The notes beneath the pieces are model-generated. The model was not told the DNA's origin and made no database searches. It worked only from the letters and a program-made list of their open reading frames with translations. From Hydrolagus affinis (taxonomy: Eukaryota), in assembly GCA_012026655.1 (NCBI GenBank), contig JAAILG010001708.1, forward strand, positions 1-62,802: 62,802 nt of DNA, written 5' to 3'. Numbering within the stretch: position 1 is the first letter of the stretch; each line of letters begins with the position of its first letter. This document shows, in pieces, positions 3,386 to 62,802 of this stretch. Position numbers and translations under genes: made by a program.

Positions 3386-4714
3386 GACAGAAAACTCTGA
3401 ATGACAAAGTTTTCAATGAGCGATTATTGTTGCTATCTCGCCAGTTTGGTGTATTGATGTACAATGTACTACTGTATTGAATTTGCAGTCTAATAGAATT
3501 CAAGGGGGCAAGTCAGATCAAAATGCTTTTCCCTCCATCCTTATTCACAGCTGTCGCTAGACCGCCTGCTCAACGGAGGGATCAGTCATACCAGAGAATT
3601 CTACCATCAGAAATAGATCGCAGAGTTAGATGCCCTTTCTCTCTTGTGGGTGTCACGGAATAACATCTTACTTTAATATTTTTGCCTTCTATCTTCCCAG
3701 TATCGTTCGCTGGTTGAGGTGTCTTACGAGAAAGGGCTTGGGGAATGATTACAAGCTTGCCGAGCCTGTCACCCGTAGGCCGTTTCAATCCCCAGCTGCT
3801 AGAGTTGACAAATGCTTTCCACGTGTTTTGCGAAGAGGAATGTTGAGTTAGACTGAAAAATCAAAGCTCTAAACAGAAGCTGCTTATATCATTTATGAGC
3901 TCTGAACAACTGAAATGTTTAACGTATCTGTTGCTTATTAACAAGTTCGCACACAAAATATACAGTCAATTCACTTTACAGTATATTCCATTGGGAGGCC
4001 ACAATATCTGAAATCCTAGGATTATTATTGTTATGATGATTTTAGGTCTATTGAGGGGTGGGGAGGAAGTCGATACAATATACGATGTGATAATTATCAT
4101 ATATAAGGGCGGATAAAGAACTCAATTTCATTCAGGATCTCAATCAGTTGTATTGTCACGAAGACCAGTAAAAAATACTATCTGTAGTGAAGCTGAAAAT
4201 TAACATTTTCTATTTCGTTGTGATAGAGCTCTTTCTCTCAGAATAATAATAATAATCCTTGCATCTGATATAGCGCTTTTCACATTTTATTGACATCTCA
4301 ATAGAATAGAACCGTACCCTTCAAATCATTCCCATTGCTGAGTTTCGTTACTTTGAATTTCAGTTGTGGAAAGAAGGACTCAGTTATATCGGTCAGTCAG
4401 TTTAGAAGAGATTAAATTTGAATATATTTATCTTAAAACAATTTTTTTTAAAAGCTTTTTTATATGGTGCTGAATAAAGATTATTTTATCATATTATGCT
4501 CCGTTAACACCGTCCACAATAAAAGAACAACTGTACCCCCAACGGTTAAGTCTATAATATAAAGGATATGAAATTTCAGAGGCTTTACCATGTTGGCGTG
4601 AAAACTGAACAAGTACCATATCGATTCATAGTTGGTAGAAGTTTATTTTTTAAAAAGAAGTGAAAAATGCCATGCTTCATAACAGATTAGTACTGTAGTA
4701 AGAAAATTCAACAA

Positions 4715-4841
4715 GGTCTTGCATTTCAGAATTTGGCAAATTCTTAAATACCAACTTTCATTCTGAAGCTGTTTTTTTCTGAGAAACAGCTTTCGAGTTA
4801 AGACTGAATTCAACAATTTGCCAAATTCTGAACACAACACC
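4715..4841. repeat. Decayed palindromic element (MITE-like relic)
   Basis: Perfect 18-bp inverted repeat ttcagaatttggcaaatt (4725-4742) / aatttgccaaattctgaa (4815-4832), with a concentric inner pair aagctgttt / aaacagctt. Confidence 0.65.
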
Positions 4842-8580: not shown

Positions 8581-8950
8581 CTAATAATCCTTGCATTTGA
8601 TAAAGTGCTTTGTGACGTCTTCTAGAAGTCTCAAAGCGCTTCACAGAATATACTGTAAAGTGAATTGACTGTATATTTTGTGGGCGAAACGCGGCAGCCA
8701 ATTGAGCACAGCAGCGTCCCCCACAAACAGCCGTGGATTGAAGTGACCAATTTATTAGTGTTATTTTTTTTGAAGGCATTATTAGCCCCATAAAAGTGAT
8801 CTGCCAAATCAACTAACAATCAGGTGCCTACTTACTGCTGGGTAAATAGAGACGTGTGGAGTAAGGAATCCTGCCCAACATTTCACCTGCCAGGAATCGA
8901 ACCCAGGTCTCTTGCTTGCGAGGCGAGCGCTCTAATCACTGAGCTACAGG
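8581..8950 (-). mobile_element. Full-length SINE, long subfamily
   Basis: Reverse strand: gtcctgtagctcagtgattagagcgc...gggttcgattcc head, central cccagcagtaagtaggcacctg, standard tail. Confidence 0.9.
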
Positions 8951-8959
8951 ACACATTGT

Positions 8960-16375: not shown

Positions 16376-17249
16376 CCTTGTGACCGTGGCTTAAATGTTG
16401 CGTATATGTGGAACTTGTGGAAGTCTGGTTTGGATACCCTTAACCATGGTTTCTGCATGTAACAGACACCCCACTGACCAAGGAAATAAATGTTTTTTGC
16501 TCTGTGAGATGTGTGAGCCACACACTTAATTTTCTAGCTATGGGGCCCAGTAAACATCCAATTTGGCTTCATTTCCTGACCGATTACACCACAGTGTATA
16601 TTTGAAAACTTATCCGCTGTGCAAATCACACAGCCCAACCGAAAGCAGCTCTCTTCCCCTTCAAGAGGAAATAACTTCACAGTGGGGGGGGGGCACATAG
16701 GACCAGCACTTGATAAAAGTTCCCAGTCGAACAAGTCCTACAGTGAGAGTGCAGTGAAAATGATCAAATTGACCGTGCGTACCTCATAAATCAGAACAGC
16801 CTCTCTTTTTAACACCCGAGGAGCCAGTCTTCCATCTCATGCTTATACTAAGGTAAACAAAGAAATCTGACACCTCTAGATCACCGCAATCCCTCGAGTG
16901 CTTCTCTCTGCCCGCTTGAAAAGACTGCCCACCTTATAAAGTCAATTTAGTTTGCATTTACCCCGCCAATCCTTTTATATCGGGGAAAGAATCATTGTTC
17001 AATTGAAGCTTTGCGGCAAGGGAAACATTATTGATCTCTACATCTCACATTGTTCCTTCTGTACGTTTTAAATGGTTGGGGGGAGTGGGGGAACGGTAGC
17101 AGATGTTCAATCACCCTGCCATACATTGCTTTATTTTGTGGGTTGTAATATCTTTGGTGCTGCAGGTGTCTGTATCTTTACTTTGCCATCTCTGTCCTAT
17201 AGTGCAGCCAGCTCACTTCTTACAGCACAGATCTTTATCTTTTAAATAT

Positions 17250-17505
17250 AAATAAAGAAATCACTGGGAACACTCAGCAGGTCAGGCTGCATCTATGGAG
17301 AGAGGAAAAATGAGTTAACAATGACCTTTCGCCAGAATCTTTTGAAGCCAAATTGTCTGAACAAACTGTGGAGTTCAGACGAAAGGTCACAGACATGAAA
17401 CTCCTCTTCCTCTCACCATAGATGCTGCCTGACCTCCTATGCGTTCCTGGTGACTTTTTGTGTTCATACCACATTTCCAGGATCTGGAGTATTTTGCCTT
17501 TTTTT
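17250..17505. mobile_element. Older inverted dimer of a Penelope-type terminal repeat
   Basis: Arms ~17250-17337 (cactcagcaggtcaggctgcatctatggagagagg) and ~17373-17470 (cctctcaccatagatgctgcctgacc) are reverse complements; same family as 45060 and 62408. Confidence 0.75.
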
Positions 17506-17661
17506 TTCTTATCTTTTAATATTTGCTTGGTGGTGGCAGACCAGTCATTGGGGCTTGTTTTGGGATTAATAATCTGAGATTTTGGGTGAATTGTGGTAAC
17601 TGTATTTCACTGTGTGTTAAATACAGCAGCCAATTTTTCGTGCAAAGCAACGTAATAATAC

Positions 17662-18480: not shown

Positions 18481-18580
18481 NNNNNNNNNNNNNNNNNNNN
18501 NNNNNNNNNNNNNNNNNNNNNNNNNNNNNNNNNNNNNNNNNNNNNNNNNNNNNNNNNNNNNNNNNNNNNNNNNNNNNNNN
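18481..18580. other. Assembly gap (100 N)
   Basis: Run of exactly 100 n; the true gap length is unknown. Confidence 1.
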
Positions 18581-20627: not shown

Positions 20628-20938
20628 AGTAATAATATTAATAATAATAATCCTTACGTTTGATATAGCGTCTTCTCATGTCTTCTAGACGTGCCTCACA
20701 GAATACACTCTTAAGTGAATTGACTGTTATATATGTAGGCGAAACACAGCAGCCAATTGTGCGCAGCAGTGTCTTACAAACAATAGTGGATTGAAATGAT
20801 TGAATTCTTCTTCTTTTTGAGGGATTATTATCAGGTGTGTGGATTAAGGAAACTTTCCCAATGTTTTGCCCTGCCTGGAATCAAACCCAGGTCTCTCGCT
20901 TGTAGGGCGAATGCTCTAACCCACTGTGCTACAAGACT
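20628..20938 (-). mobile_element. Full-length young SINE
   Basis: Head, body and (AAT)n tail all present. Confidence 0.88.
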
Positions 20939-21582
20939 GAAACAATTAGAGGAGGGCTGCGTGATCTGTAATTTGCACACAAGTGGATGAAACAGTTAGG
21001 ATCGTTAGAAATCGTGCAGTGGACACCTTGAAACACCTTCTGAAACAGTGGTGTTATGTATCTTCAATGCAGTTTTTAGTAGAAAAGGAGAATCCACTAT
21101 TCCAATACTATCTCAATGGGATGAAAAAAAAATGTAATTTGCCATTCTGGACCATGGTATTATCGAGGATTGGCACAGTGTTCAAGCATAGTTCTCTCAA
21201 GCATATGCAAGCTACCATCACGTTGTGGGAAGAAGTGAGGAATGGTATTTTGGAAGGAGCAGATCAAGTGGTTCGAAAAACCTTCTTCATCTGACAGTCT
21301 CTTGAGATCTTGTAAAACACGAGCCAGGATTCCTGATCCCAATCACTATGTCAAAACCATTGCTAGATAGAGTTAGGTGAGGATATAGGCTTAGGTTCAC
21401 AGTTATCAAGATGGTGGAGTGCAACATCCTTGTTTGAAAAGCTTGCTGACACTCTCTGTCTGACCTTCAACGTGAAGAGTAACTATTTGGGTGCCAAAGG
21501 TATTGGAAGTCTGCCAAAGTCTTTGGAATCATATCCACTGTGAGACAGAGTTTTCAGATGAACAGGAAAAGGGCCAAAATTG

Positions 21583-21800
21583 TAATAAGAATAATAATCC
21601 TTGCATTTGATATAACGGCTTTTCAACGTCTTTCAACGACATCTCAAAGCGCTTCACAGAATGTACTGTAAAGTGAATTGACTGTATATTTGTGGGCGAA
21701 ACGCGGCAGCCAATTGCGCACAGCAGCGTCCCCCACAAACAGTCGTGCATTGAAAATGACATTTTTATTATTGTGGTTGTTTTGGAGGGATTGTTATGGT
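21583..21800 (-). mobile_element. 5'-truncated young SINE
   Basis: Near-consensus 3' 220 bp. Confidence 0.9.
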
Positions 21801-22109
21801 GGGGGTGGCTCCTAATGCTGTTCTGTTGTTAATTTACACATAATGTTCAATTGGTTGTTGTTGTTGTTCTTGGGTAGGGTTTCCTTCCACCTACCAGCAC
21901 GTAGTCACTATTCACAAGTAATAAACACTGCTGCGTTCTCTCCTGCTCTCCTGACCTCCTGCTTTCTTCAAGGGAAAGATTCACCAGAACCATAAATCCA
22001 CCTGCCCTTTTAGTGACAGCGATCCATTGGATATTCGGCTCAGGTGAGGATCAGGAACATCTAAAACGTCCTTCAGTATCTCAACAGTATTCGCTCAGCA
22101 AACGAGTGG

Positions 22110-22399: not shown

Positions 22400-22720
22400 A
22401 AATAATAATAATCCTTGCATTTGATATAGCACTTTTCATGTCTTGTAGGCATCTCAAAGCGCTTCACAGAATATACCGTAAAGTAAATTGTCTGTATATT
22501 TGTGGGCCAAAATGAGGCAGCCAATTGCGCACAGCAGCGTCCCCCACAAACAGTCGTGGATTGAAATGACCAATTTTATTATTATTTTTTCTTTGGAGGT
22601 ATTATTATTAAACGTGTGGAGTAAGGAAACTTGCCCAAGGTTTCGCCCTGACCTTCCTGGATTCGAAACACAGGTCTCACACTTGTAAGGCGAGTGCTCT
22701 AACCCACTGAGCTGCAGGAC
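22400..22720 (-). mobile_element. Full-length young SINE
   Basis: Reverse head gtcctgcagctcagtgggttagagcactcgcc...gttcgaatcc-like B box; (AAT)n tail. Confidence 0.92.
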
Positions 22721-23394
22721 ATGTTACTGAAGCTGCAGAATAGACTAGAATTGAAGGCTCAGTTATCCCACCTGACCTCAGCTTTGCCATCTTCTCTCCA
22801 CAATGGTTGTGATTGGGAATTCAGGAAATAGGGTGAGAGGGTCATGAGAACTATATTCCTTGGCTATTCTGTGACAACACAGATGAGCTCCCCAAAGCAC
22901 ACTCCCCAAAGTGCCTGTTTTCTAGGCACTTGAATCCTGCTCCAGCCTGGGGGATATGTTGAACTTAGACTTGTACAAGTCTAGACTTGTACATAAAAAC
23001 TATCAATGAACTTCCACAATCTAATGTCGGGAAATTTGATTCAATTGGAGTTAGCCAATTTATGGATGGATTTCCATACTGCCTCCCGATAGAATCCCAA
23101 TTGCCTGTAACAATATCATCCAAGTGAGTGAAGCATGAATGCAAATAAATGGAGGCCCTGGGTCTTAGCTGGACAACCTTTGAGTTGGGAGTCAAACTCA
23201 CACACAAAACACTTTGCATAAATGACTGTCGGAGAGGCAAAGGTCACAATCCTAAACTCTCTCATCACATCTCGGAGAGAGATTTGAATCTAAAACAGAC
23301 AAACAGGATGTAAGAGGTTGGCTCTCTCTGACAGCTACGGGGAGTCAGAAGTAAGATTAGTTTAGGCAGCTTGAACCCAATTGCCTCCGTCAGA

Positions 23395-23713: not shown

Positions 23714-24045
23714 GAGTCCTGTAGCTCAGTGGTTAGAGCACTCTCCTTACAAATGTGAGACCTCTGTTCAAATCCAGGCAGGTCAGGGGCAAAACCTTGG
23801 GAATGTTTCCTTACTTCACACACCTAATAATAATCCCTCCCCCAAAAAACACGCACAATATTAAAATTGGTTATTTCAATCCACGACTGTTTGTGGGGGA
23901 CGCTATTGTGCGCAATTGGCTGCCGCGTTTCGCCCACAAATATACAGTCAATTCACTTTACACTATATGTTGTATATGTGTTTTGAGACATCTAGAAGAT
24001 GTGAAAAGGATTAATATATCAACTGCAAGGATTATTATTATTATT
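23714..24045 (+). mobile_element. Full-length young SINE
   Basis: gagtcctgtagctcagtggttagagc (A box), gttcaaatcc (B box), (ATT)n tail. Confidence 0.92.
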
Positions 24046-33180: not shown

Positions 33181-36014
33181 AGACTAGAGAAACAGTACGA
33201 CCGACTGTCCTATTTCCCAAAGCAAACTTACTACCAATTCTTAATTACGGACATCCTGCATTGCAAAATTATGGGCATAAAACGGAGTAAGTAAAAAGAA
33301 AGACAAAAGTGCTCAGAATCGTGCAGAGCTGTATAGCGGGTGCTGGGATTTTCCTGAGGGATAAATCTGACCTACTCTCTCTGTCAGTCCTCTGTCAATG
33401 CATCCACATTTCCAGTAATTTTCTTATCTCGGTGATATTAAAAATGTTTCCTGTTTTCAAGGCCCTTTCTCTAGTGGGGCTCCTCTCTGGGGATTTCCTT
33501 ATCTAACTGCTTTGGCGGCAGAACATACACAAGTACAGCACTTTTTTTTCTCTCTCTCTGAAGTTCCGACAGGGATGAATGGCTGTAACACAATACACAG
33601 TCTATTCCACTTAAATTGCCTGATAAGTGACTGACTGATTCTTTAACTCACTAAGTGAGTCAGTCACCGATTCCCATTGTAAGATTGTATATATTTTACG
33701 GCTGTTTCTACCCGGATGTTTTTTCTGAATGTATATTATTTCGAAGGCATTTTATTTTGACAAGATATTTTAGAGACCTACATATTACTGCCTCCACGAT
33801 GCTAACCTTGCCTAAAGGGTACTATATAAATGCAAGTCATTGTTATTGTACCTCTACCTAATACACTTATTTGTATCGTTCTGTGCTTCGCCTCCCACAG
33901 ACATCATCACATCTGCGATTTCACAAGGGAAATTTACAACGTAGGAAACCATTGGCAAATGTCACCAAGCTAATCGCGAGGTTGGAAGCGTTTTGGTTGA
34001 ACCCTGTCCTGCCCTTATCTGGCCTCCATACCTTCATTTAGGGATCATGTATGGGAACCCTCATCTGATTATTTCCCCCTCCGTCCCTTAACCCTGCAGA
34101 GTCCTGGAGCTCAGTGGTTAAAGCTTCGTAAGCAGGAATACCTGGGTTTGAAGCCAAGCAGAGCAAAACCTTGCTTATCTCAAGCCCCCTCATTCTTTTA
34201 TTAATAGTTACTAATTACTGTAACGTCCTGAAGTGCTTAGACACTTTTTACAACGTCTTAAATTGTGACATTATTTCCCACATATTAAATACAGGTACAA
34301 GGTAACATTTCCCAAACTCAAGCGATTTGGGGACTGAAGAGTAATGCCTGTGCAATCTTCTTAAGAGTATCTTAAATATAAAAGATCTAAGTATATAGAC
34401 TGAATGTTGATGATCATAATCTTACACAGATTGCATTGTTCACACATATCCCAGGCTATTTCTATTCCACTACATTTATTTTGATATTGTAAAGCTATCT
34501 AGATATTCAATGTTCCAGCCACACTCAAGCCAGTCATGCAAATGATCAGGTGAAGAGAATGATGAGTGTGAAAACTCATCACCTGGTCAAACGTGGTGAG
34601 AGTTCCCTGTAGGCAAAGTTTGTGATATAAAAGTGACATATGGGGTTCTGGGTTTGGTGGTTAGAGCCCTTGCCTCGCAAGCGAGAGATCTGGGTTTGAT
34701 TCCCGGTGAACCGTTGGGGTTAGGATTATTTCCCCTCCTTACTCCACACACCACTGTTTATTTTTGTACAGTATTTTGTGAAACAAAGGCACTATAACAA
34801 CTTGCACTTGTATAGTGCCCTCCACACAGGGCAGCATCTAACAGCTCTACTCTGCTTCCCAAATGCAAGGATTATTATTATTATTATCTGTCCTATGGAA
34901 AAGCCTTCTCTTCTTGTAACTGATGAATCACTACAAGCTAAAAAAAATACTCTTCCCCATTCATTTTAATAACATTTTTGATCAATGCAAATAATGAGAC
35001 AGAGGGTAGAAATGTTTGCTTGATTAAATAAATGTATTTTTATTAGATTATTTTTAACACTTGCAGCGTGTAATGACCCAGTGATCCAGAAGCTCTCGCT
35101 CAAACACATTGATCAGGGTTTTCTTTTTACAACCTCTCTCAATGGGTGGAAGGAGCCCGGACTGTTTTCAATTATCCACAATACGCTTACAAGCACTTAA
35201 CAGGAGCATTAGCAGAGAGCACAGGTCTGGAGGGCACTGGACTCGGGGAAAACACACACAAAACAACAGCCATTAAACAAGGGAACCGTCCACTCCAAAC
35301 CCAGAAGGCCCAGTAATTCAAAAGGGGTTAAAATAGTTAACACAAGTAATCCAAAAGGGAGAAGATATGCAACAAACAAAGTGATACATGAAAAGAGAAC
35401 TCCTGCTTGTTTGACCTTTAATGCAGATAGCAGATGTCATAGGCTTGATTGCTGCGGAGGGAATTGAAAATTCTCCATCCCACTGTCCCATAAATATTCC
35501 GCTGACGTTTATTATCTTCAGTTTTGCTCAGATGCCAAAATACTTGGACTGCATTAAATTACTGGTTTGCAACGTTTCCACTCTGTCCACAAAGGTCCCT
35601 TATGGAACAGACATATCACTGATCCATTAACATGACATGTTCAACAAACATGCAGCTTCAGCAACATTTGTAAAACTGTACAACTGCTTGGAAATAGATT
35701 CTGTATGTGAATGCCTTATGTACCGATAAACTGTATCGGTACTAAGATTGTGCTAAGTAAACATAGTTCCTTGGGAGGGAGAGGTGGGGGGTTTCATTGC
35801 TTTGGTGAGCAGCACAATGAATAAATCCAAAGTGGGTTGTGGTGAAGACAGATTAAACTAATTCAGATCTACGGAACTCAAATCGCCGGGACCAACATGG
35901 AAAGAACGAGGATCAATATTGAAACATTAACTCCCCTTCGGAGGACAAACTACAGAACTGGACTTGAGCTGACTGGTCTCGGCATCTGTAATCTCTCGCT
36001 TTGCAGTTTAACAT

Positions 36015-36430: not shown

Positions 36431-37111
36431 ACAGTTGCATTGAGGTCAGTTGAACGACATAGCATCACCTCTGCAAATGGCCATTGTGGTTGCTCGAGTG
36501 ACGGAAAGCCTTGACTCCTGTTGAGATGGTTTGATTTCAGTTCCCGATAAAGGCTTCTATTTGCACCGCAAATTCATTCAACCAGGATCATAGCGTGAAC
36601 ACCAGCAGTGATAAGATATGTTGGTATTCATTTCAAAATCCACAGGCATGAAGATAATTTGTTAATACTCAGACGGAAAGGAAAGTTGATTGAATTTCCA
36701 CAATGGTACAGTGTGTGTTACAATGTGTGGAGGAAGATCAATGTTAGTTTCTGCGTTGGCAGCAGGAGATTTTTGTACCGCGTTTCCTAATAGCACATTT
36801 ACCATTCTTCACGCTGATACAATTGCCTTTCCCCTCCTGTGTGTCACAGGGATTGTGTGGCATAGGGGAGAGCGTGGAATTATTTCAATATCATAGTATT
36901 AGAAATAGAGGAGAAAGGTGAATGAATTGGAAACATCAGATTTGAAATGCGATGCTATCTCCTGATGCTCTGCACCAAGCCTAGGTGGTTTGGTTTGGAT
37001 ATCCCTCATCGCTCTACAATAAAGGGATGTGTTACCTCAACATCGTGGAAGTTTGATACGTGACCTTTTTTTGTCTTTGACCTTGAATTTCTTCAGAAGA
37101 TCACAAGGACC

Positions 37112-37435
37112 TCCTGTGGCTCAGTGGGTTAGAGCACTCGCCTTACAAGCGTGAGACTTGTGTTCGAATCCAGGCAGGTCTTATCGCCGAAACCTTGGTC
37201 GGCAAGTCTCCTTACTCCACACACACGCCTAATAATAATCCGTCCCCCCAAAAATAATAAAAATTGGTCGTTTTCAATCCATGACTGTTTGTGGGGGACG
37301 CTGCTGTGTGCAATTGTCTGCCCCGTTTTGCCCACAAATATACAGTCAATTTACTTTACAGTATATTCTGTGAAGCACTTTGGGACGTCGATAAAATGTA
37401 AAAAGCGCTATATCAAATGCAAGGATTATTGTTAT
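37112..37435 (+). mobile_element. Full-length young SINE
   Basis: A box tggctcagtgggtt, B box gttcgaatcc, consensus body and tail. Confidence 0.93.
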
Positions 37436-42344: not shown

Positions 42345-43125
42345 TTTGCATCAGCATCCACAGCTGCACACTCAATCTCACAAAGCCAGTCAGGAACCTG
42401 GTGTGTCTTGTTTGACCCTGAACTGTCCTTTCTCCCCCACATCCTTTCACCACCTGCATAACATTGCCAGACTCCGCCACCGCCTCACCCCTCAGGCTGC
42501 CGAAACCCTCACCCACGCATTCGTCACATCAAGGGCTCGACTACGGAAACTCCCTCCTCGTCAGCCTTCCCGGCTCTTTCCTTCACAAGCTGCAGATCAT
42601 CTAAACTCTGCAGCTCGTGTCCTCTCCCGCACCAGGCTTCGCGATCCCATCACTCCCACCCTCGCCTGGCTCCATTGGCTCCCCGTCCCCCAGAGGATCC
42701 AATTCAAGATCCTTGTCCTCACTTGCAAGGCCATTCCACGTCCTTGCCCCTTCCTACCTCGCCGACCTGATGACTCCTTACCAACCTCCCCGCCCCCTCC
42801 GTTCAGCGGGCTCCGGCCTGCTCCACCCGCCTGACCTGCCCGACCATCGGCGGCCGGGCTTTCAACCTCTCTCTGCCCCCCACACTCTGGAACTCCATCC
42901 CACAGTCCCTTGCCCTCACTTCCGCTCTTGCCTCCTTCAAGGCCGGTCTCAACAAACCTCCTCCGCCTCCCTCCCAACTCTCTCCCTACCCTCCCCACTC
43001 CCCCTTACCCCCCCTAATCTGCCCCATCCTCCATTCTTGGGTCCCCACCACCTGACTGTTCAGCGCCTTGGGGCGTCCTCCCGACCTGAAAGGCGCACTT
43101 TATAAATGTAATTGTATTGTTTTGT
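42345..43125 (+). mobile_element. L2-clade LINE 3' ~780 bp (frameshifted)
   Basis: ORF 42346-42834: FHHLHNIARLRHRLTPQAAETLTHAFVTSR...NSAARVLSRTRLRDPITPTLAWLHWLPVPQRIQFKILVL; intact 3' tail. Confidence 0.93.
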
Positions 43126-44599
43126 TTCAGATTTAACCCTCAGGCCCTAACGCGTCGACTCGTTCATTTTTAAAAAAAAATTGAACACAGGAAAAAAAAA
43201 CTGCAAAAAATACAAAATACGGATACATATCCTTAGATCTTTTTTTGTGGGGGGGGATGTTTTGTTATATCCTTCAGCATAATGTCATTTCAATCCTCTC
43301 TTGTAAAAGTCAGGCCTTGCCCTCAGAGAATGTTATCGCAGTCGATTTGCGTACCAGAGTTTCACTGTTACACTTCTCTCTATGGGGGTTTGTTGTTGTG
43401 CGCTGGTTTCGTGCTCGACAAACTGACATTTAATTGGCTGAATGAATCAAATCCAAAAAAAACACGCGTGATTTACAATTAGGAATTAATACACTTTCAG
43501 GTCATGTTAAACACCCGAGTTTGTTTCATTATCCACGTTGAAATAGTTTGTCATCAGAAACATATCCTCCGGGTCGTGTCAGCAGACTGACTCTATACAA
43601 TGCACGTGTTAAAGGCCAGCTCCTCAACCTCAAAGCTTTGAATATTTCATCACTTACATATCGCCTATCACAGATTTAATTTCCTTTTGCATCAGGGTAA
43701 CGCTGAACAGCTGCAAACGAAAGCTACTCCAGTCTGATTATCACAGCAAAGCCTCTACTCTCCCTCCCTCCCTCTCCCCACCCACCAACCCCCTCCCACC
43801 CCCGCCGCCACCCCCTCCCTCCCTCACACACCCCAGCCTGTTCCCCTCAATCACCACTGCCTCCAGAACGCCTGGCTTTTGTCAGACTGTTCTTGGAGAA
43901 AGAACTACAGACAAAATAACGTCTGTGCTGCAGACTTCATCCTTCAATATGGGGAGTGGGTAGGGGGGAGGCGGGGAGCGTGCAACTGGGTGGGGGGGCG
44001 GGGGTGGGGGTGTGGGGAGGGGGAAGGCACCTAAGCGGTTCTTCAGGCCGAGCAAGGGCAGAATTCAAGGTTACAAAAGCATTATTACAGCTTTACATCC
44101 GTCTGCTTCAGTTTAACCAGGTGCAAAGGCTACAGGCGAAGAGGAAGTAACCCTTTGAAGGCTCGCTGGAACAACTGTGCGCTGGACTTGCTTTACGTAT
44201 TTTAAAGCGGGCTCGGTTTTTGGTGGGGGAGCAGCTGCGGGAGAGGAGTAAAAAGTGGGGGGGGGTGGGGTGGGGAGCAGGTGTAATTCATAAGGGTGAA
44301 TATGGCAGACACATGCTGGCCGGGCTCTCGCTCCCCACAGGTGATTTCTTACAGAAAAGGGTATTTATTTATGGAGCTTTATCACATAGTTCAGCCCCCG
44401 CTCAGCGTCACGTTCATGCCTCTGCGGTTAATGAGCGATCGCCCTGGACAGTAACTGGATGTGCATCACACTCCCCACGGAACCAGGTGTATTGGGTGTT
44501 GGAGCAGAGATCCGGCTGGTCAGGTAGATGCCTCCTCTACCCCCCACCCCTCCACCACTCCCTCAACCACAATTATTGGCAGGAGTCTCTGGTTGCAAC

Positions 44600-44810
44600 T
44601 TCCTTTAATGAATATAAATAGTTCTGTACCCATTGCCTCTGCGGTCAGGCCTTCACACTCTCTGCACACGTTCTTTCGACCTCCATCAACACAGTCCCTT
44701 CAAGTCCCTTCGGTCCCTCCTTTGCCTCCTTCAAGGCCTATCTCAACGCCCTCCTCGCTAAGGGTCACCCTCCTACCCACATCCTCCCGTCCCATCCACC
44801 CCTCCTGATG
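44600..44810 (+). mobile_element. Decayed L2 3' fragment
   Basis: acagtccctt...cctccttcaaggcctatctcaacgccctcctc. Confidence 0.6.
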
Positions 44811-44837
44811 CTAACCCCCAGCTCAGCAACACACCAT

Positions 44838-45040
44838 GGAGCCCTGTAGCTCAGTGATTAGAGCACTCGCCTCACAAGGGTTTCAAAGCCTCGCCCTCTC
44901 CCGAGCGTCCTTCAAGTCCCTTCCTCTCTTCGATGATTCCATCGGTCACCCCACCCCCTCTAAAACACTGACTATCCAGCGGCTTGGGGCATCCTCCCAA
45001 TGTGAAAGGTGCCGTACAAATGTAATTTTGTTGTTGTTGC
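44838..45040 (+). mobile_element. Chimera: SINE tRNA head joined to an L2 3' tail
   Basis: ggagccctgtagctcagtgattagagcactcgcc runs into tccttcaagtcccttcctctcttcga...tgtgaaaggtgccgtacaaatgtaattttgttgttgtt. Confidence 0.7.
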
Positions 45041-45059
45041 CAGTGGACATAATCCTTAA

Positions 45060-45203
45060 CAAAACACAAAATACGACAGATGCTGGGAATCTGAAACAAA
45101 AACAGAAGTTGCTGGGGAAACTCAGCAGGTCAGGCAGCATCCATGGAGAGAGGAAAAAGAGTCAACGTTTCGGGTCTACAACCCTTCGTCAGAACTGAGA
45201 TAC
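45060..45203 (-). mobile_element. Penelope-type terminal-repeat fragment (monomer) with TSD
   Basis: Near-identical to the reverse complement of 62516-62652; flanked by aatccttaa (45051-45059 and 45204-45212). Confidence 0.85.
45160..45196 (-). ncRNA. Minimal type I hammerhead ribozyme motif
   Basis: Minus strand AGUU-CUGACGA-A-GGGU uguag ACCC-GAAA-CGUU-GACU: both catalytic boxes, 4-bp helix II, 4-bp helix I (AGUU/GACU), and palindromic AACGUU in place of helix III. Confidence 0.65.
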
Positions 45204-45975
45204 AATCCTTAAAATACTTGTGTGGTAATCAAACAAGATCACACCACACACAATCTCAAGACTCGCCCATTTTTGTTGTGGAATGCTCTATAGAACCTAA
45301 AATTTCACCTATTCCTTCCATTCTTAAAAATTTCAGGTGAGGCTGAAAGATGGCAAATTCTTCAATCCAATTCTAATTTTGAATCCAGTTCATTTTAAGA
45401 ACTGTAAAAAGGTGGGAATTATAAGTTTACACTCTCAACAATGTAAGCACAACAGAAGAGACTGAGTGATGCAGGTTTGGCTGATACTTGAGTTATCTTA
45501 TACAATAAATGATACACGAGTACATATGTTCCTATTGCAGTAGAGTAACAGCAGGAGAAGTATATATTGGCTACATCCTGTGAAACCCTTTGAGATGCCC
45601 TCCCAATATGAAATACATTACAGTATACTAAATATAATTATTATTTCTTTCCCCTAGTTCTAAACTCTACTGCTCTCTCATCAATCACACGCATTGGAAG
45701 AAAAAGGCGAGATTGGAGAAGCATTTAGAAATAATAATAATCCTCACAACTGATGTAATCACTTTAGACCATCAAGAGATGAGCTGATTAGATTTTGATT
45801 GTGTTGTGCTTAGATTAATGCAAAACGGAGCCAAATCTTCAAGGGAGAGAGAGAGAGAGAGAGTCACCATCCAAACTCCTCCGATAACATCAAAATCAAC
45901 AACAGAAGTAAAAGCTGGCTTAATTCCAAGCTTCTTCAGTTTAGGTTTGGATTGCTCATGATAAAGGAGCATTAA

Positions 45976-46091
45976 ACGTTTCGCCCACAAATATACACAG
46001 TCAATCACTTTACAGTATATTCTGTGAAGCGCTTTCGAGATGTCTAGAAGACATGAAAAGCGCTATAGCAAACGCAAGGATTATCATTATT
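45976..46091 (+). mobile_element. Young SINE 3' fragment
   Basis: cgtttcgcccacaaatat...gcaaggattatcattat. Confidence 0.88.
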
Positions 46092-46183
46092 AAAACCGTT
46101 TACAAAGAGAATCTGTGTCTGAACTGTTTGAGCTAATCAAATTCTTGTGATAAGGACATGGAAATCCATCACTTGACCTGGAG

Positions 46184-46340
46184 TAATAATAATTCTTGTA
46201 TTTGAAATAACACTTCTCACATCTTCTAGACATCTTAAAGCGCTTCACAGAATAGATGTAAAGAGAATTGACTGTATATTTGTGGGCGAAACGCGGCAGC
46301 CAATTGCGCACAGCAGCGTCCCCCCACAAACTGTCGTTTG
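46184..46340 (-). mobile_element. Young SINE 3' fragment
   Basis: Reverse consensus tail; sits tail-to-tail with the previous copy. Confidence 0.88.
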
Positions 46341-46478
46341 TGAACGTATAAGGTAAATGTTACAGTTTTCATAGGAACACTTCCCAAAGTAAATGTGGCT
46401 TGTTTATAAATGTGGGTGATTAGTGTCATAAAGAGTGTTAGCATATGTTCAGAAGAATTTGAATTATCCATTTATTGC

Positions 46479-46503
46479 AACACACACACACACACACACA
46501 CAC
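46479..46503. repeat. (AC)n microsatellite
   Basis: Direct reading. Confidence 0.9.
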
Positions 46504-46842
46504 GTATATGTAACCTCGGTGTGGTGAGTAGCGTTGCCTGTAGTTTAGTATACTGGAGGTGTAGTTGAGATGTCATCCATACTACCTCATATAAAGGGAT
46601 TTAGATAAAAAATCCAAGAAGAATAAATATACTGTAGAAGTGCATGGGAGAAAGCAGTATATTGAGACTAAGATGTGGAGGGGTGGACACCCAAACCACT
46701 TGATAATTGAAGATATCGAACCGACACAATACGCTTTTCATATAACTCTCACTGGTGATCACTATCACATCAACAGTTTCATTTTTTTTTGCCACCCAGC
46801 AAAGGTGAAGCAGACTATGATGGAGCTGAAGTATATCATGCG

Positions 46843-47156
46843 GAGTCCCATAGCTCAGTGGTTTGAGCACCTGCCTCGCAAGTGAGAGACATGGGTTCGA
46901 TTCCCTGCAGCGCAAAACCTTGGGCAAGTTTCCTTACTCCACACGCCTGATAATAATCCCTCAACAAAAAAACAATAATAAATTGATCACTCATTCCACG
47001 GCTGTTTGTGGGGGACGCTGCTGTGCGCAATTGGCTGCCCCGTTTCGCCCACAAATATACAGTCAATTCACTTTACAGTATATTCTGTGAGGAGCTTTGA
47101 GATGCCTAGGAGACGTGAAAGGCGCTATATCAAATGTAAGGATTATTATTATTATT
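46843..47156 (+). mobile_element. Full-length young SINE
   Basis: A box tagctcagtggt, B box gggttcgattccc, consensus body, (ATT)n. Confidence 0.93.
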
Positions 47157-57254: not shown

Positions 57255-57560
57255 AATTGTTTGTCAATTGCCAGATCGTTTTCTGGGGATAATAATTCAC
57301 AAAATGCAACCCATTTTACAGTATATTCTGTGAAGCATTTTGAGACGTCTCGAATACGTGATAAGGCGCTATATTAATAATAATAAATAATAATAATCCT
57401 TGCATTTGATATAGCACTTTCCACATCTTATCAACGTCCCAAAGCGCGTCACAGAATATACTGTAAGTGAATTGACTGTATATATTTGTGGGCGAATCGC
57501 GGCAGCCAATTGCTCATGGCAGCGTCCCCCACAAATATCAAATGCGAGGATTATTCTTAT
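57255..57560. mobile_element. Nested SINEs: a minus-strand copy inside the tail of a plus-strand copy
   Basis: The plus tail breaks at ...ggcgctatat (57374) and resumes atatcaaatgcgagg (57535); the insert between is a reverse SINE 3' end. Confidence 0.85.
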
Positions 57561-62275: not shown

Positions 62276-62407
62276 TCTTACTGCGAATTTAATGCAGAAA
62301 GGAAACATGATGCCTAGAACAACACACATCCACTCCCCTTTACTATATATCCTATCAAGTGCTTTCAGATGTCCTCCAGATTTCAAGGCACTATATGAAA
62401 TGTAAGA

Positions 62408-62653
62408 AACAAAAACAGAAGTTGCTGGGGAAACTCTGCAGGTCAGGCAGCATCCATGGAGAAAGGAAAAAGAGTCAACATTTCGGGTCTACAACCCTTC
62501 ATCAGAACAGGGTTAGTTCTGACGAAGGGTTGTAGATCCAAAACGTTGACTCTTTTTCCTCTCTCCATGGATGCTGCCTGACCTGCAGAGTTTCCCCAGC
62601 AACTTCTGTTTTTGTTTCAGATTCCCAGCATCTGTAGTATTTTGTGTTTTGTG
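62408..62653. mobile_element. Penelope-type inverted terminal-repeat dimer with a 14-bp TSD
   Basis: Arms 62406-62508 and 62516-62618 are reverse complements (5 mismatches in 103 bp); spacer agggtta; tatgaaatgtaaga is duplicated at 62394-62407 and 62654-62667. Confidence 0.9.
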
Positions 62654-62802
62654 TATGAAATGTAAGATTCATGAAGGCCTTTTTTGGCTATGTGTCAGCC
62701 CAGCTCAGTGATAACACTCTCGCTTGCCACATTGAGACTTGGAATCACATAGTTTAATTTGACACCCATTGCTGTGAGCAATTGGCTGCAGCGTTTCCCC
62801 CA

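Follow-up and report, generated by a model that had tools for sequence, protein, structure and literature searches.

A minimal hammerhead motif in a short, duplication-flanked, high-copy repeat of Hydrolagus affinis, a likely truncated end of a Penelope-like element

Introduction

What is a complete hammerhead motif doing in a short insertion bounded by a target-site duplication, and did the ribozyme have any part in setting the ends of that insertion? The question is raised by a locus at 45060-45203 (locus A) of contig JAAILG010001708.1 of Hydrolagus affinis; the whole stretch of DNA analysed, 62,802 nucleotides in length, is referred to below as the window. A first-pass annotation, made from the letters alone, had read the locus as an intact minimal hammerhead in a mobile unit of ~145 bp, with a 5' end consistent with ribozyme-linked RNA processing.

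Minimal hammerhead ribozymes (min-HHRs) were described in the pLTRs of metazoan Penelope-like elements (PLEs) by Cervera and De la Peña (2014, PMC4209133), so the ribozyme class has been known since 2014 and the locus adds one more copy to it. The traits given for min-HHRs in that paper are an extra base before helix II, a G10.1-C11.1 pair, palindromic positions 15.2-16.2 and a short helix I. The coelacanth and Xenopus genomes are reported there to hold thousands of min-HHRs each, most of them single motifs belonging to truncated elements. Their activity in vitro is weak: monomers show no cleavage and dimers a low level of it (PMC4209133). A review (PMC6765202) also attributes cleavage of dimers to Lünse et al., and cleavage is reported in one of nine Xenopus dimers by Li et al. 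(2026, bioRxiv 10.64898/2026.07.22.740005). In an anole PLE, the hammerhead is not needed for insertion.

Results

Read position by position, the minus strand at 45196-45160 forms a minimal hammerhead of type I, complete in all its parts and 37 nt long. The 5' strand of helix I (AGUU, 45196-45193; pair probability 0.51-0.74) is followed by the core box C3-A9 (CUGACGA, 45192-45186), by an extra, unpaired A at 45185, which lies between positions 9 and 10.1, and by a helix II of 4 bp. In this helix GGGU (45184-45181) pairs with ACCC (45175-45172) with a probability of 0.93-0.94, and the G10.1-C11.1 pair is formed by G 45184 and C 45172; the loop is UGUAG, and a fifth pair, U.G, is possible. The second core box, G12-A15.1 (45171-45168), leads into C15.2, G16.2, U16.1 and U17 (45167-45164). 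Both CUGANGA and GAAA...UH are present in this way, the latter with U16.1 and U17 at 45165-45164. Helix III is absent, and its place is taken by the palindrome ACGU (45168-45165), within which 15.2-16.2 are palindromic. Hammerhead numbering places the predicted cut between 45164 and 45163, before the 3' strand of helix I (GACU, 45163-45160). Helix I has 4 bp including one U.G, its first pair, against 2-6 bp in the published min-HHR rows. The two catalytic boxes, helix II, the 4-bp helix I and the extra A all stand as the first-pass annotation had described them at 45196-45160. It had also named a self-complementary AACGUU in place of helix III; the palindrome is there, but the part that can pair is only ACGU (15.1-16.1), since A14 and U17 must stay unpaired.

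The motif was compared with its published relatives and with shuffled sequence. It shares with the min-HHRs of PMC4209133 both boxes, the extra base 9/10.1, the G10.1-C11.1 pair, a CG palindrome without helix III and the short helix I. The Xenopus (2) row in Fig. S3 of that paper has the identical CUGACGAA box and a similar helix II, and GUU sites and CUGACGAA boxes both occur in the published alignment. The motif differs from these min-HHRs in family sequence only; its helix II, with 4-5 bp, lies near the lower limit of the published range, and its helix I opens with U.G. By sequence and structure, the motif of locus A is a minimal hammerhead, and the consensus traits support its earlier assignment to the type I hammerheads known from PLE terminal repeats, with an architecture that implies cleavage as a dimer. 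A descriptor of such motifs (the two boxes, a minimum of 4 bp in each of helices I and II, and no more than 2 nt replacing helix III), which was composed after the motif had been seen but modelled on the published one, has a single match on both strands of the window, at 45196-45160. The same descriptor finds a match in 5 of 1000 dinucleotide shuffles, and in 9 of 1000 when up to 6 nt are allowed in place of helix III. The Rfam hammerhead models, which had been proposed as a check, give no match in 43000-47000, in 45130-45230 or in the whole window, either at E values up to 10 or at the gathering threshold. Rfam hammerhead models probably need helix III. A literature search with thin coverage of subscription papers gave no earlier description of the family in sharks, which is a weak negative, and cartilaginous fish (shark, Callorhinchus, Leucoraja) are not named in the searched supplement text, file 2, of PMC4209133; the supplements of Li et al. 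may list the family.

The hammerhead is followed on the minus strand by ~70 nt of family sequence and by an optional 3' tail of ~33 nt (45060-45092), and these parts together fill the interval 45060-45203 between two copies of a target-site duplication. The 9-bp duplication first noted as bounding the insertion (aatccttaa) is exact at 45051-45059 and 45204-45212; a repeat of this kind flanks 49 of 20,000 random 144-bp intervals. The duplication is possibly longer, 14 bp at 45046-45059 and 45199-45212, with 12 of 14 positions identical and both differences being transitions. Since a 14-bp duplication is possible, sister locus B has an exact one of that length and the family likeness in sequencing reads stops at 45197-45198, the insertion unit may be 138-139 bp, starting 1-2 nt before helix I. 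The 5' end had been placed ~7 nt upstream of helix I; its closeness to helix I holds, but the distance may shrink to 1-2 nt if the duplication is 14 bp. By its anatomy, the tail is likely a PLE tail of the kind described in PMC8557442 and PMC11167929. The mobile unit of ~145 bp survives as a duplication-flanked insertion, but is more simply read as the truncated end of a longer element.

BLAST and nhmmer searches of the whole window recover five arms of the family at three loci. Locus B (62406-62651) is composed of two head-to-head arms, a tail-less left arm on the minus strand (62406-62508) and a right arm with the tail on the plus strand (62515-62651), joined by a 6-nt fold-back linker (62509-62514) and flanked by an exact 14-bp duplication (62394-62407 and 62654-62667). 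At locus C (17250-17502) the head-to-head pair belongs to a related subfamily; it is older and decayed, and is flanked by an exact 11-bp duplication (17235-17245 and 17509-17519). Inverted arms in head-to-head orientation are seen at both sister loci, and locus A is a solo copy; with none of the three loci in the window carrying tandem units, a tandem retrozyme at locus A was rejected. One arm is longer at its 3' end than its partner, by 33 nt at B and 37 nt at C, and this extension, confined to a single arm at both sister loci, is also borne by the copy at A. The exact duplications of A, B and C measure 9, 14 and 11 bp and have AT contents of 78, 79 and 91%.

Locus A differs from the right arm of B at 4 of 137 positions. 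Core damage is seen in four of the five arms of the window: the right arm of B has lost G12, the hammerhead general base (PMC6155905), to A and has a wobble in helix II, the left arm of B carries C15.2>U, and both arms of C carry deletions. The copy at A alone keeps all core positions and all three core CpGs, as is expected from its youth alone. Pair counts over the five arms give 91% paired cells with one compensatory pair, a result as high as which is reached in 121 of 500 shuffles.

Three DNA runs (X1, X6, X7) and one RNA run were compared with 44940-45340. The family is a very high-copy repeat, its depth over the hammerhead core relative to the unique flank being 19,160x in X1, 24,163x in X6 and 67,597x in X7, ratios that do not translate into copy numbers. 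The reads reveal two classes of 3' end. Among the 21 longest of ~69,000 element pieces, 11 start at 45057-45065, six at 45089-45095 and four between, and 9 of the best 15 of 172 joints fall at 45089-45098. The same best 15 of 172 joints include neither an empty-site joint nor a head-to-tail joint. Past 45197, 70 contigs of X1 continue with an agreement of 0.52; since this exceeds the 0.34-0.36 of unrelated flanks, shared upstream sequence, and hence longer forms, are likely in many copies.

Sequence variation within the motif is greatest in loop II (21-28% of read depth among the best 40 of 125 variant rows), and U>C at 45180, in 21% of read depth, turns the fifth pair of helix II into C-G. 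The core variants among the same best 40 rows are G8, C11.1, C15.2 and G16.2, all of them CpG transitions at 5-12%, in counts restricted to records at least 85% alike, a filter that favours apparent conservation. The pattern is weakly consistent with conserved masters and neutral decay of the copies.

The polyA single-cell RNA run, which is labelled as a different organism, yields 11,624 reads with the two strands about equal and no pile-up of ends; these reads derive from many other copies, and 5'-OH ends are unlikely to show in a library of this kind, so that the run carries no information on cleavage. In RNA run X21, 537 reads exit the family at the tail-less 3' end, 45095, into shared sequence (agreement 0.67), which could reflect a single well-expressed copy or else a subfamily present in that organism. 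A contig of X7 labelled as a different organism (record 24) matches 45180-45340 with three differences; its element side is just 24 letters long, short of the 31 that the read-placement tool requires, and it gives a hint that the insertion may be common to another organism. A contig of X1 (record 8) that matches the unique flank 45205-45340 stops at 45205 with 16 letters unplaced, and could represent another allele or an error. Outside animal DNA, the 21-nt family motif has no match in viral contigs and the longer family pattern none in prokaryote genomes. Six metagenome-contig matches to the 21-nt motif were dismissed as chance, with only 21-23 nt alike in DNA of 60-66% GC. A 23-nt exact match to the middle of the family at 3999-4023 of four near-identical GC-rich loci of bacterial type (L001-L004) extends to no further likeness and is likewise taken as chance.

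The window is repeat-rich DNA of animal type. Its open reading frames were searched with Pfam in a set of 503, comprising all 213 frames of at least 70 aa and 290 frames of 45-69 aa outside repeats, and leaving out frames under 45 aa, frames of 45-69 aa inside repeats and frames with N. None of the 503 matches a reverse transcriptase (RT) or GIY-YIG domain or a host gene, and the three weak matches obtained are all below their cut-offs. The parent element with RT plus GIY-YIG domains, which the first-pass annotation had recommended looking for, is not found among these frames. An autonomous PLE was rejected on the same result, together with the absence of an ORF from the insertion. A weak match to BpuSI_N (21532-21828, minus strand, E 9.7e-5, under the cut-off) lies in a frame that overlaps a SINE-like copy and is likely spurious.

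Predicted folding speaks against activity of this particular copy. In the predicted ensemble G5-G8 pair with C15.2-U17 with probabilities of 0.79-0.90, the hammerhead fold of the monomer has a probability of 0.0009, and a nested double hammerhead is placed at -9.5 kcal/mol against -24.7 kcal/mol for the best dimer, all in terms of folding energies that omit the non-canonical contacts of the core and any help from protein. The folding z-score is -0.21, which is not significant. The nearest arms lie 17.2 and 27.6 kb from locus A, and a tandem partner is absent. These folding predictions suggest that the solo copy is probably inert. The word intact, as first applied to the motif, is apt for its sequence, which is complete, but says little on activity: a tandem partner is lacking, and in the predicted fold the core is paired to the site of cleavage.

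The position of the predicted cut bears directly on the origin of the 5' end. It lies 40 nt inside the insert and 34-35 nt from the edge of the family. The three young arms (A and both arms of B) have their 5' ends no more than 2 nt from helix I; the 5' ends of the old arms of locus C cannot be called. Cleavage would leave a 3' product that begins with G1.1 and has lost CUGACGA and helix II, and when the 5' ends of the window copies are mapped against the predicted cut, none of the five arms begins there. The earlier suggestion that the 5' end reflects ribozyme-linked RNA processing is not supported by these positions, and cleavage as the maker of the end was rejected, since copies keep sequence on both sides of the cut and none starts at G1.1. 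Because no arm begins at G1.1 and the core is retained, the template must have been uncut or religated RNA. The 6-nt linker of locus B is the reverse complement of a copy of helix II 10 nt back in the left-arm cDNA, with a fold-back of -4.5 kcal/mol, and resembles a product of short snap-back synthesis.

Discussion

We consider it probable that the repeat holding the hammerhead of locus A, which is short, flanked by a duplication and present in very high copy, represents a 5'-truncated PLE end made of terminal repeat plus tail, and that the solo copy is probably inert. Judged by its anatomy, the insertion is likely a PLE-derived fragment. The anatomy of the sister loci, the AT-rich duplications, the two classes of 3' end and the match to the min-HHR consensus all speak for a truncated PLE. 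Against it, the young arms all stop no more than 2 nt from helix I, which random truncation does not predict, the 503 frames of the window contain no coding parent, the covariation over the five arms is not significant, and the motif has no Rfam match.

Under the truncated-PLE reading, the GIY-YIG nuclease of the parent PLE would have cut an AT-rich site, and the parent reverse transcriptase would have used the more distal of a pair of start sites lying ~100 nt downstream of the hammerhead, which would account for the 33-nt tail. The enzyme would then have copied the RNA across the unbroken cut site and through the hammerhead, stopping at its 5' edge after ~140 nt, and repair would have left a duplication of 9-14 bp. 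In the tandem transcripts of the parent the motif may cleave weakly, as an ACGU dimer or with the help of protein, as in other PLEs. The solo copy at A, having no partner and with its core folded against the cleavage site, would be decaying neutrally like its sisters.

This sequence of events has counterparts in known elements. An inverted truncated copy and a one-sided tail of 30-40 bp are hallmarks of PLEs (Craig et al. 2021, PMC8557442). With inverted 5'-truncated PLE insertions the loci of the window share head-to-head arms, a palindromic junction, a 30-40-bp tail on one end and solo terminal repeats (Arkhipova et al. 2013, PMC3846280; PMC8557442). They differ in having duplications of 9-14 bp rather than 8-10 bp and arms of only ~100-140 nt (PMC3846280; PMC8557442). 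For PAc, the green anole's Poseidon PLE, Frangieh et al. (2024, PMC11167929) found two internal start sites of reverse transcription that delimit the tail, AT-rich targets, and a hammerhead that needs protein in order to cleave. Hammerhead mutants of PAc insert normally, uncut RNA is the main template, and none of the RNA-seq reads ends at the cut (PMC11167929). The family described here resembles PAc in its AT-rich targets and in a hammerhead placed upstream of what would be two reverse-transcription start sites defining an optional tail; unlike PAc, a complete element that has both RT and GIY-YIG and whose ORF starts in helix II, it has no ORF (PMC11167929).

The sharp 5' edge of the young arms can also be read as the true beginning of the unit. 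On this account, which we regard as unlikely, the unit is a short non-autonomous element, SINE-like or a passenger of PLEs in the form of a retrozyme monomer, whose master copies would begin at helix I and be mobilised by PLE proteins. The coincidence of all three young arms (A, B right and B left) with helix I and the very high copy depth agree with it, as do the sufficiency of terminal repeats in cis for mobilisation in trans (PMC3846280) and the occurrence of PLE-derived retrozyme monomers in vertebrates. Hammerhead retrozymes and PLEs are both reported from one chondrichthyan (bioRxiv 10.64898/2026.07.22.740005). In non-LTR retrozymes, hammerhead-bearing units are repeated in tandem (Cervera and De la Peña 2020, PMC7229834). 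The family resembles them in being non-coding and PLE-related, in its type I hammerhead and in the existence of dispersed monomers (PMC7229834; bioRxiv 10.64898/2026.07.22.740005), but retrozymes are defined by tandem units, whereas locus A is solo and its sisters are inverted pairs (PMC7229834). The passenger account is further opposed by the lack of tandem arrangement at all three loci, by the shared sequence that continues upstream in the X1 contigs, by the lack of a head-to-tail joint among the best 15 of 172, and by the lack of an internal promoter in the Rfam search.

The remaining explanations fare far worse. The 5' boundary does lie near the motif in all three young arms, as it might if the ribozyme's own cleavage had produced the end, but the cut falls 34-40 nt inside that boundary, both of its sides are retained, none of the five arms starts at G1.1, and insertion of the anole PLE needs no cleavage (PMC11167929); a religated circle is possible as a template but would not set the 5' end, and we hold this origin to be very improbable. 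Retention of copy A by the host as a working cis-acting ribozyme is an even more remote prospect. Such a role would suit the only arm of five with all core positions and the three core CpGs intact, and the hint of a shared insertion in the X7 contig with its 24 element-side letters. Set against this, the copy is so young (4 differences in 137 positions from the right arm of B) that intactness is expected by chance, Pfam finds no host gene in the 503 frames of the window, a partner is lacking and the predicted fold is a misfold, and the match of the X7 contig ends at 45180, inside the loop of helix II. As for a chance arrangement of letters in an unrelated repeat, its probability appears close to negligible. 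The lack of an Rfam match, the folding z-score of -0.21 and the covariation result (one compensatory pair over five arms, with 121 of 500 shuffles as high) would all be compatible with it, but only 5 of 1000 shuffles yield a descriptor match, the G10.1-C11.1 pair and the palindrome, which lie outside the core boxes of the descriptor, agree with the published consensus (PMC4209133), and the sister loci have the anatomy of PLE insertions. A chance origin was rejected on these grounds.

Returning to the truncated-PLE reading, the stop at helix I, which it does not predict, might have a structural cause. It is conceivable, if rather doubtful, that nascent cDNA of helix II and helix I snaps back, so that reverse transcription stops or inverts at the 5' edge of the ribozyme without any cutting, and that a fixed 'hammerhead plus tail' of ~140 nt travels as a passenger of Penelope proteins. 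The idea draws on the ending of all three young arms within 2 nt of helix I and on the fold-back of the locus B linker, and would account for both the head-to-head inversions of PLEs and the retention of a barely active ribozyme. Palindromes at inverted PLE junctions have already been interpreted as evidence of self-priming (PMC3846280); we found no paper linking this self-priming to the hammerhead in a search that covered the subscription literature thinly. The pattern at the edge of helix I, with its three arms at two loci, is a lead only. A young and very abundant family such as this one is a usable data set for asking whether the hammerhead works as a cutter or, through its structure, as a point at which reverse transcription stops or folds back.

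Several other repeats share the window with the hammerhead family. The end of a second high-copy repeat (44968-45039), which we take to be LINE-2-like, lies 11 nt from the left duplication of locus A and has eight overlapping matches in the window; in other contigs, tail-less copies from the hammerhead family frequently come after this tail. Six Rfam tRNA matches (8882-8953, 20866-20938, 22648-22721, 23715-23786, 34643-34714 and 37110-37178) stand at the head of a repeat family, probably a tRNA-derived SINE, for which up to ~35 overlapping matches occur in the window. An assembly gap of 100 N occupies 18481-18580. Self-inverted matches are present at 45977-46293, 57316-57466 and 4725-4832, the first two of which are SINE-like pieces facing each other.
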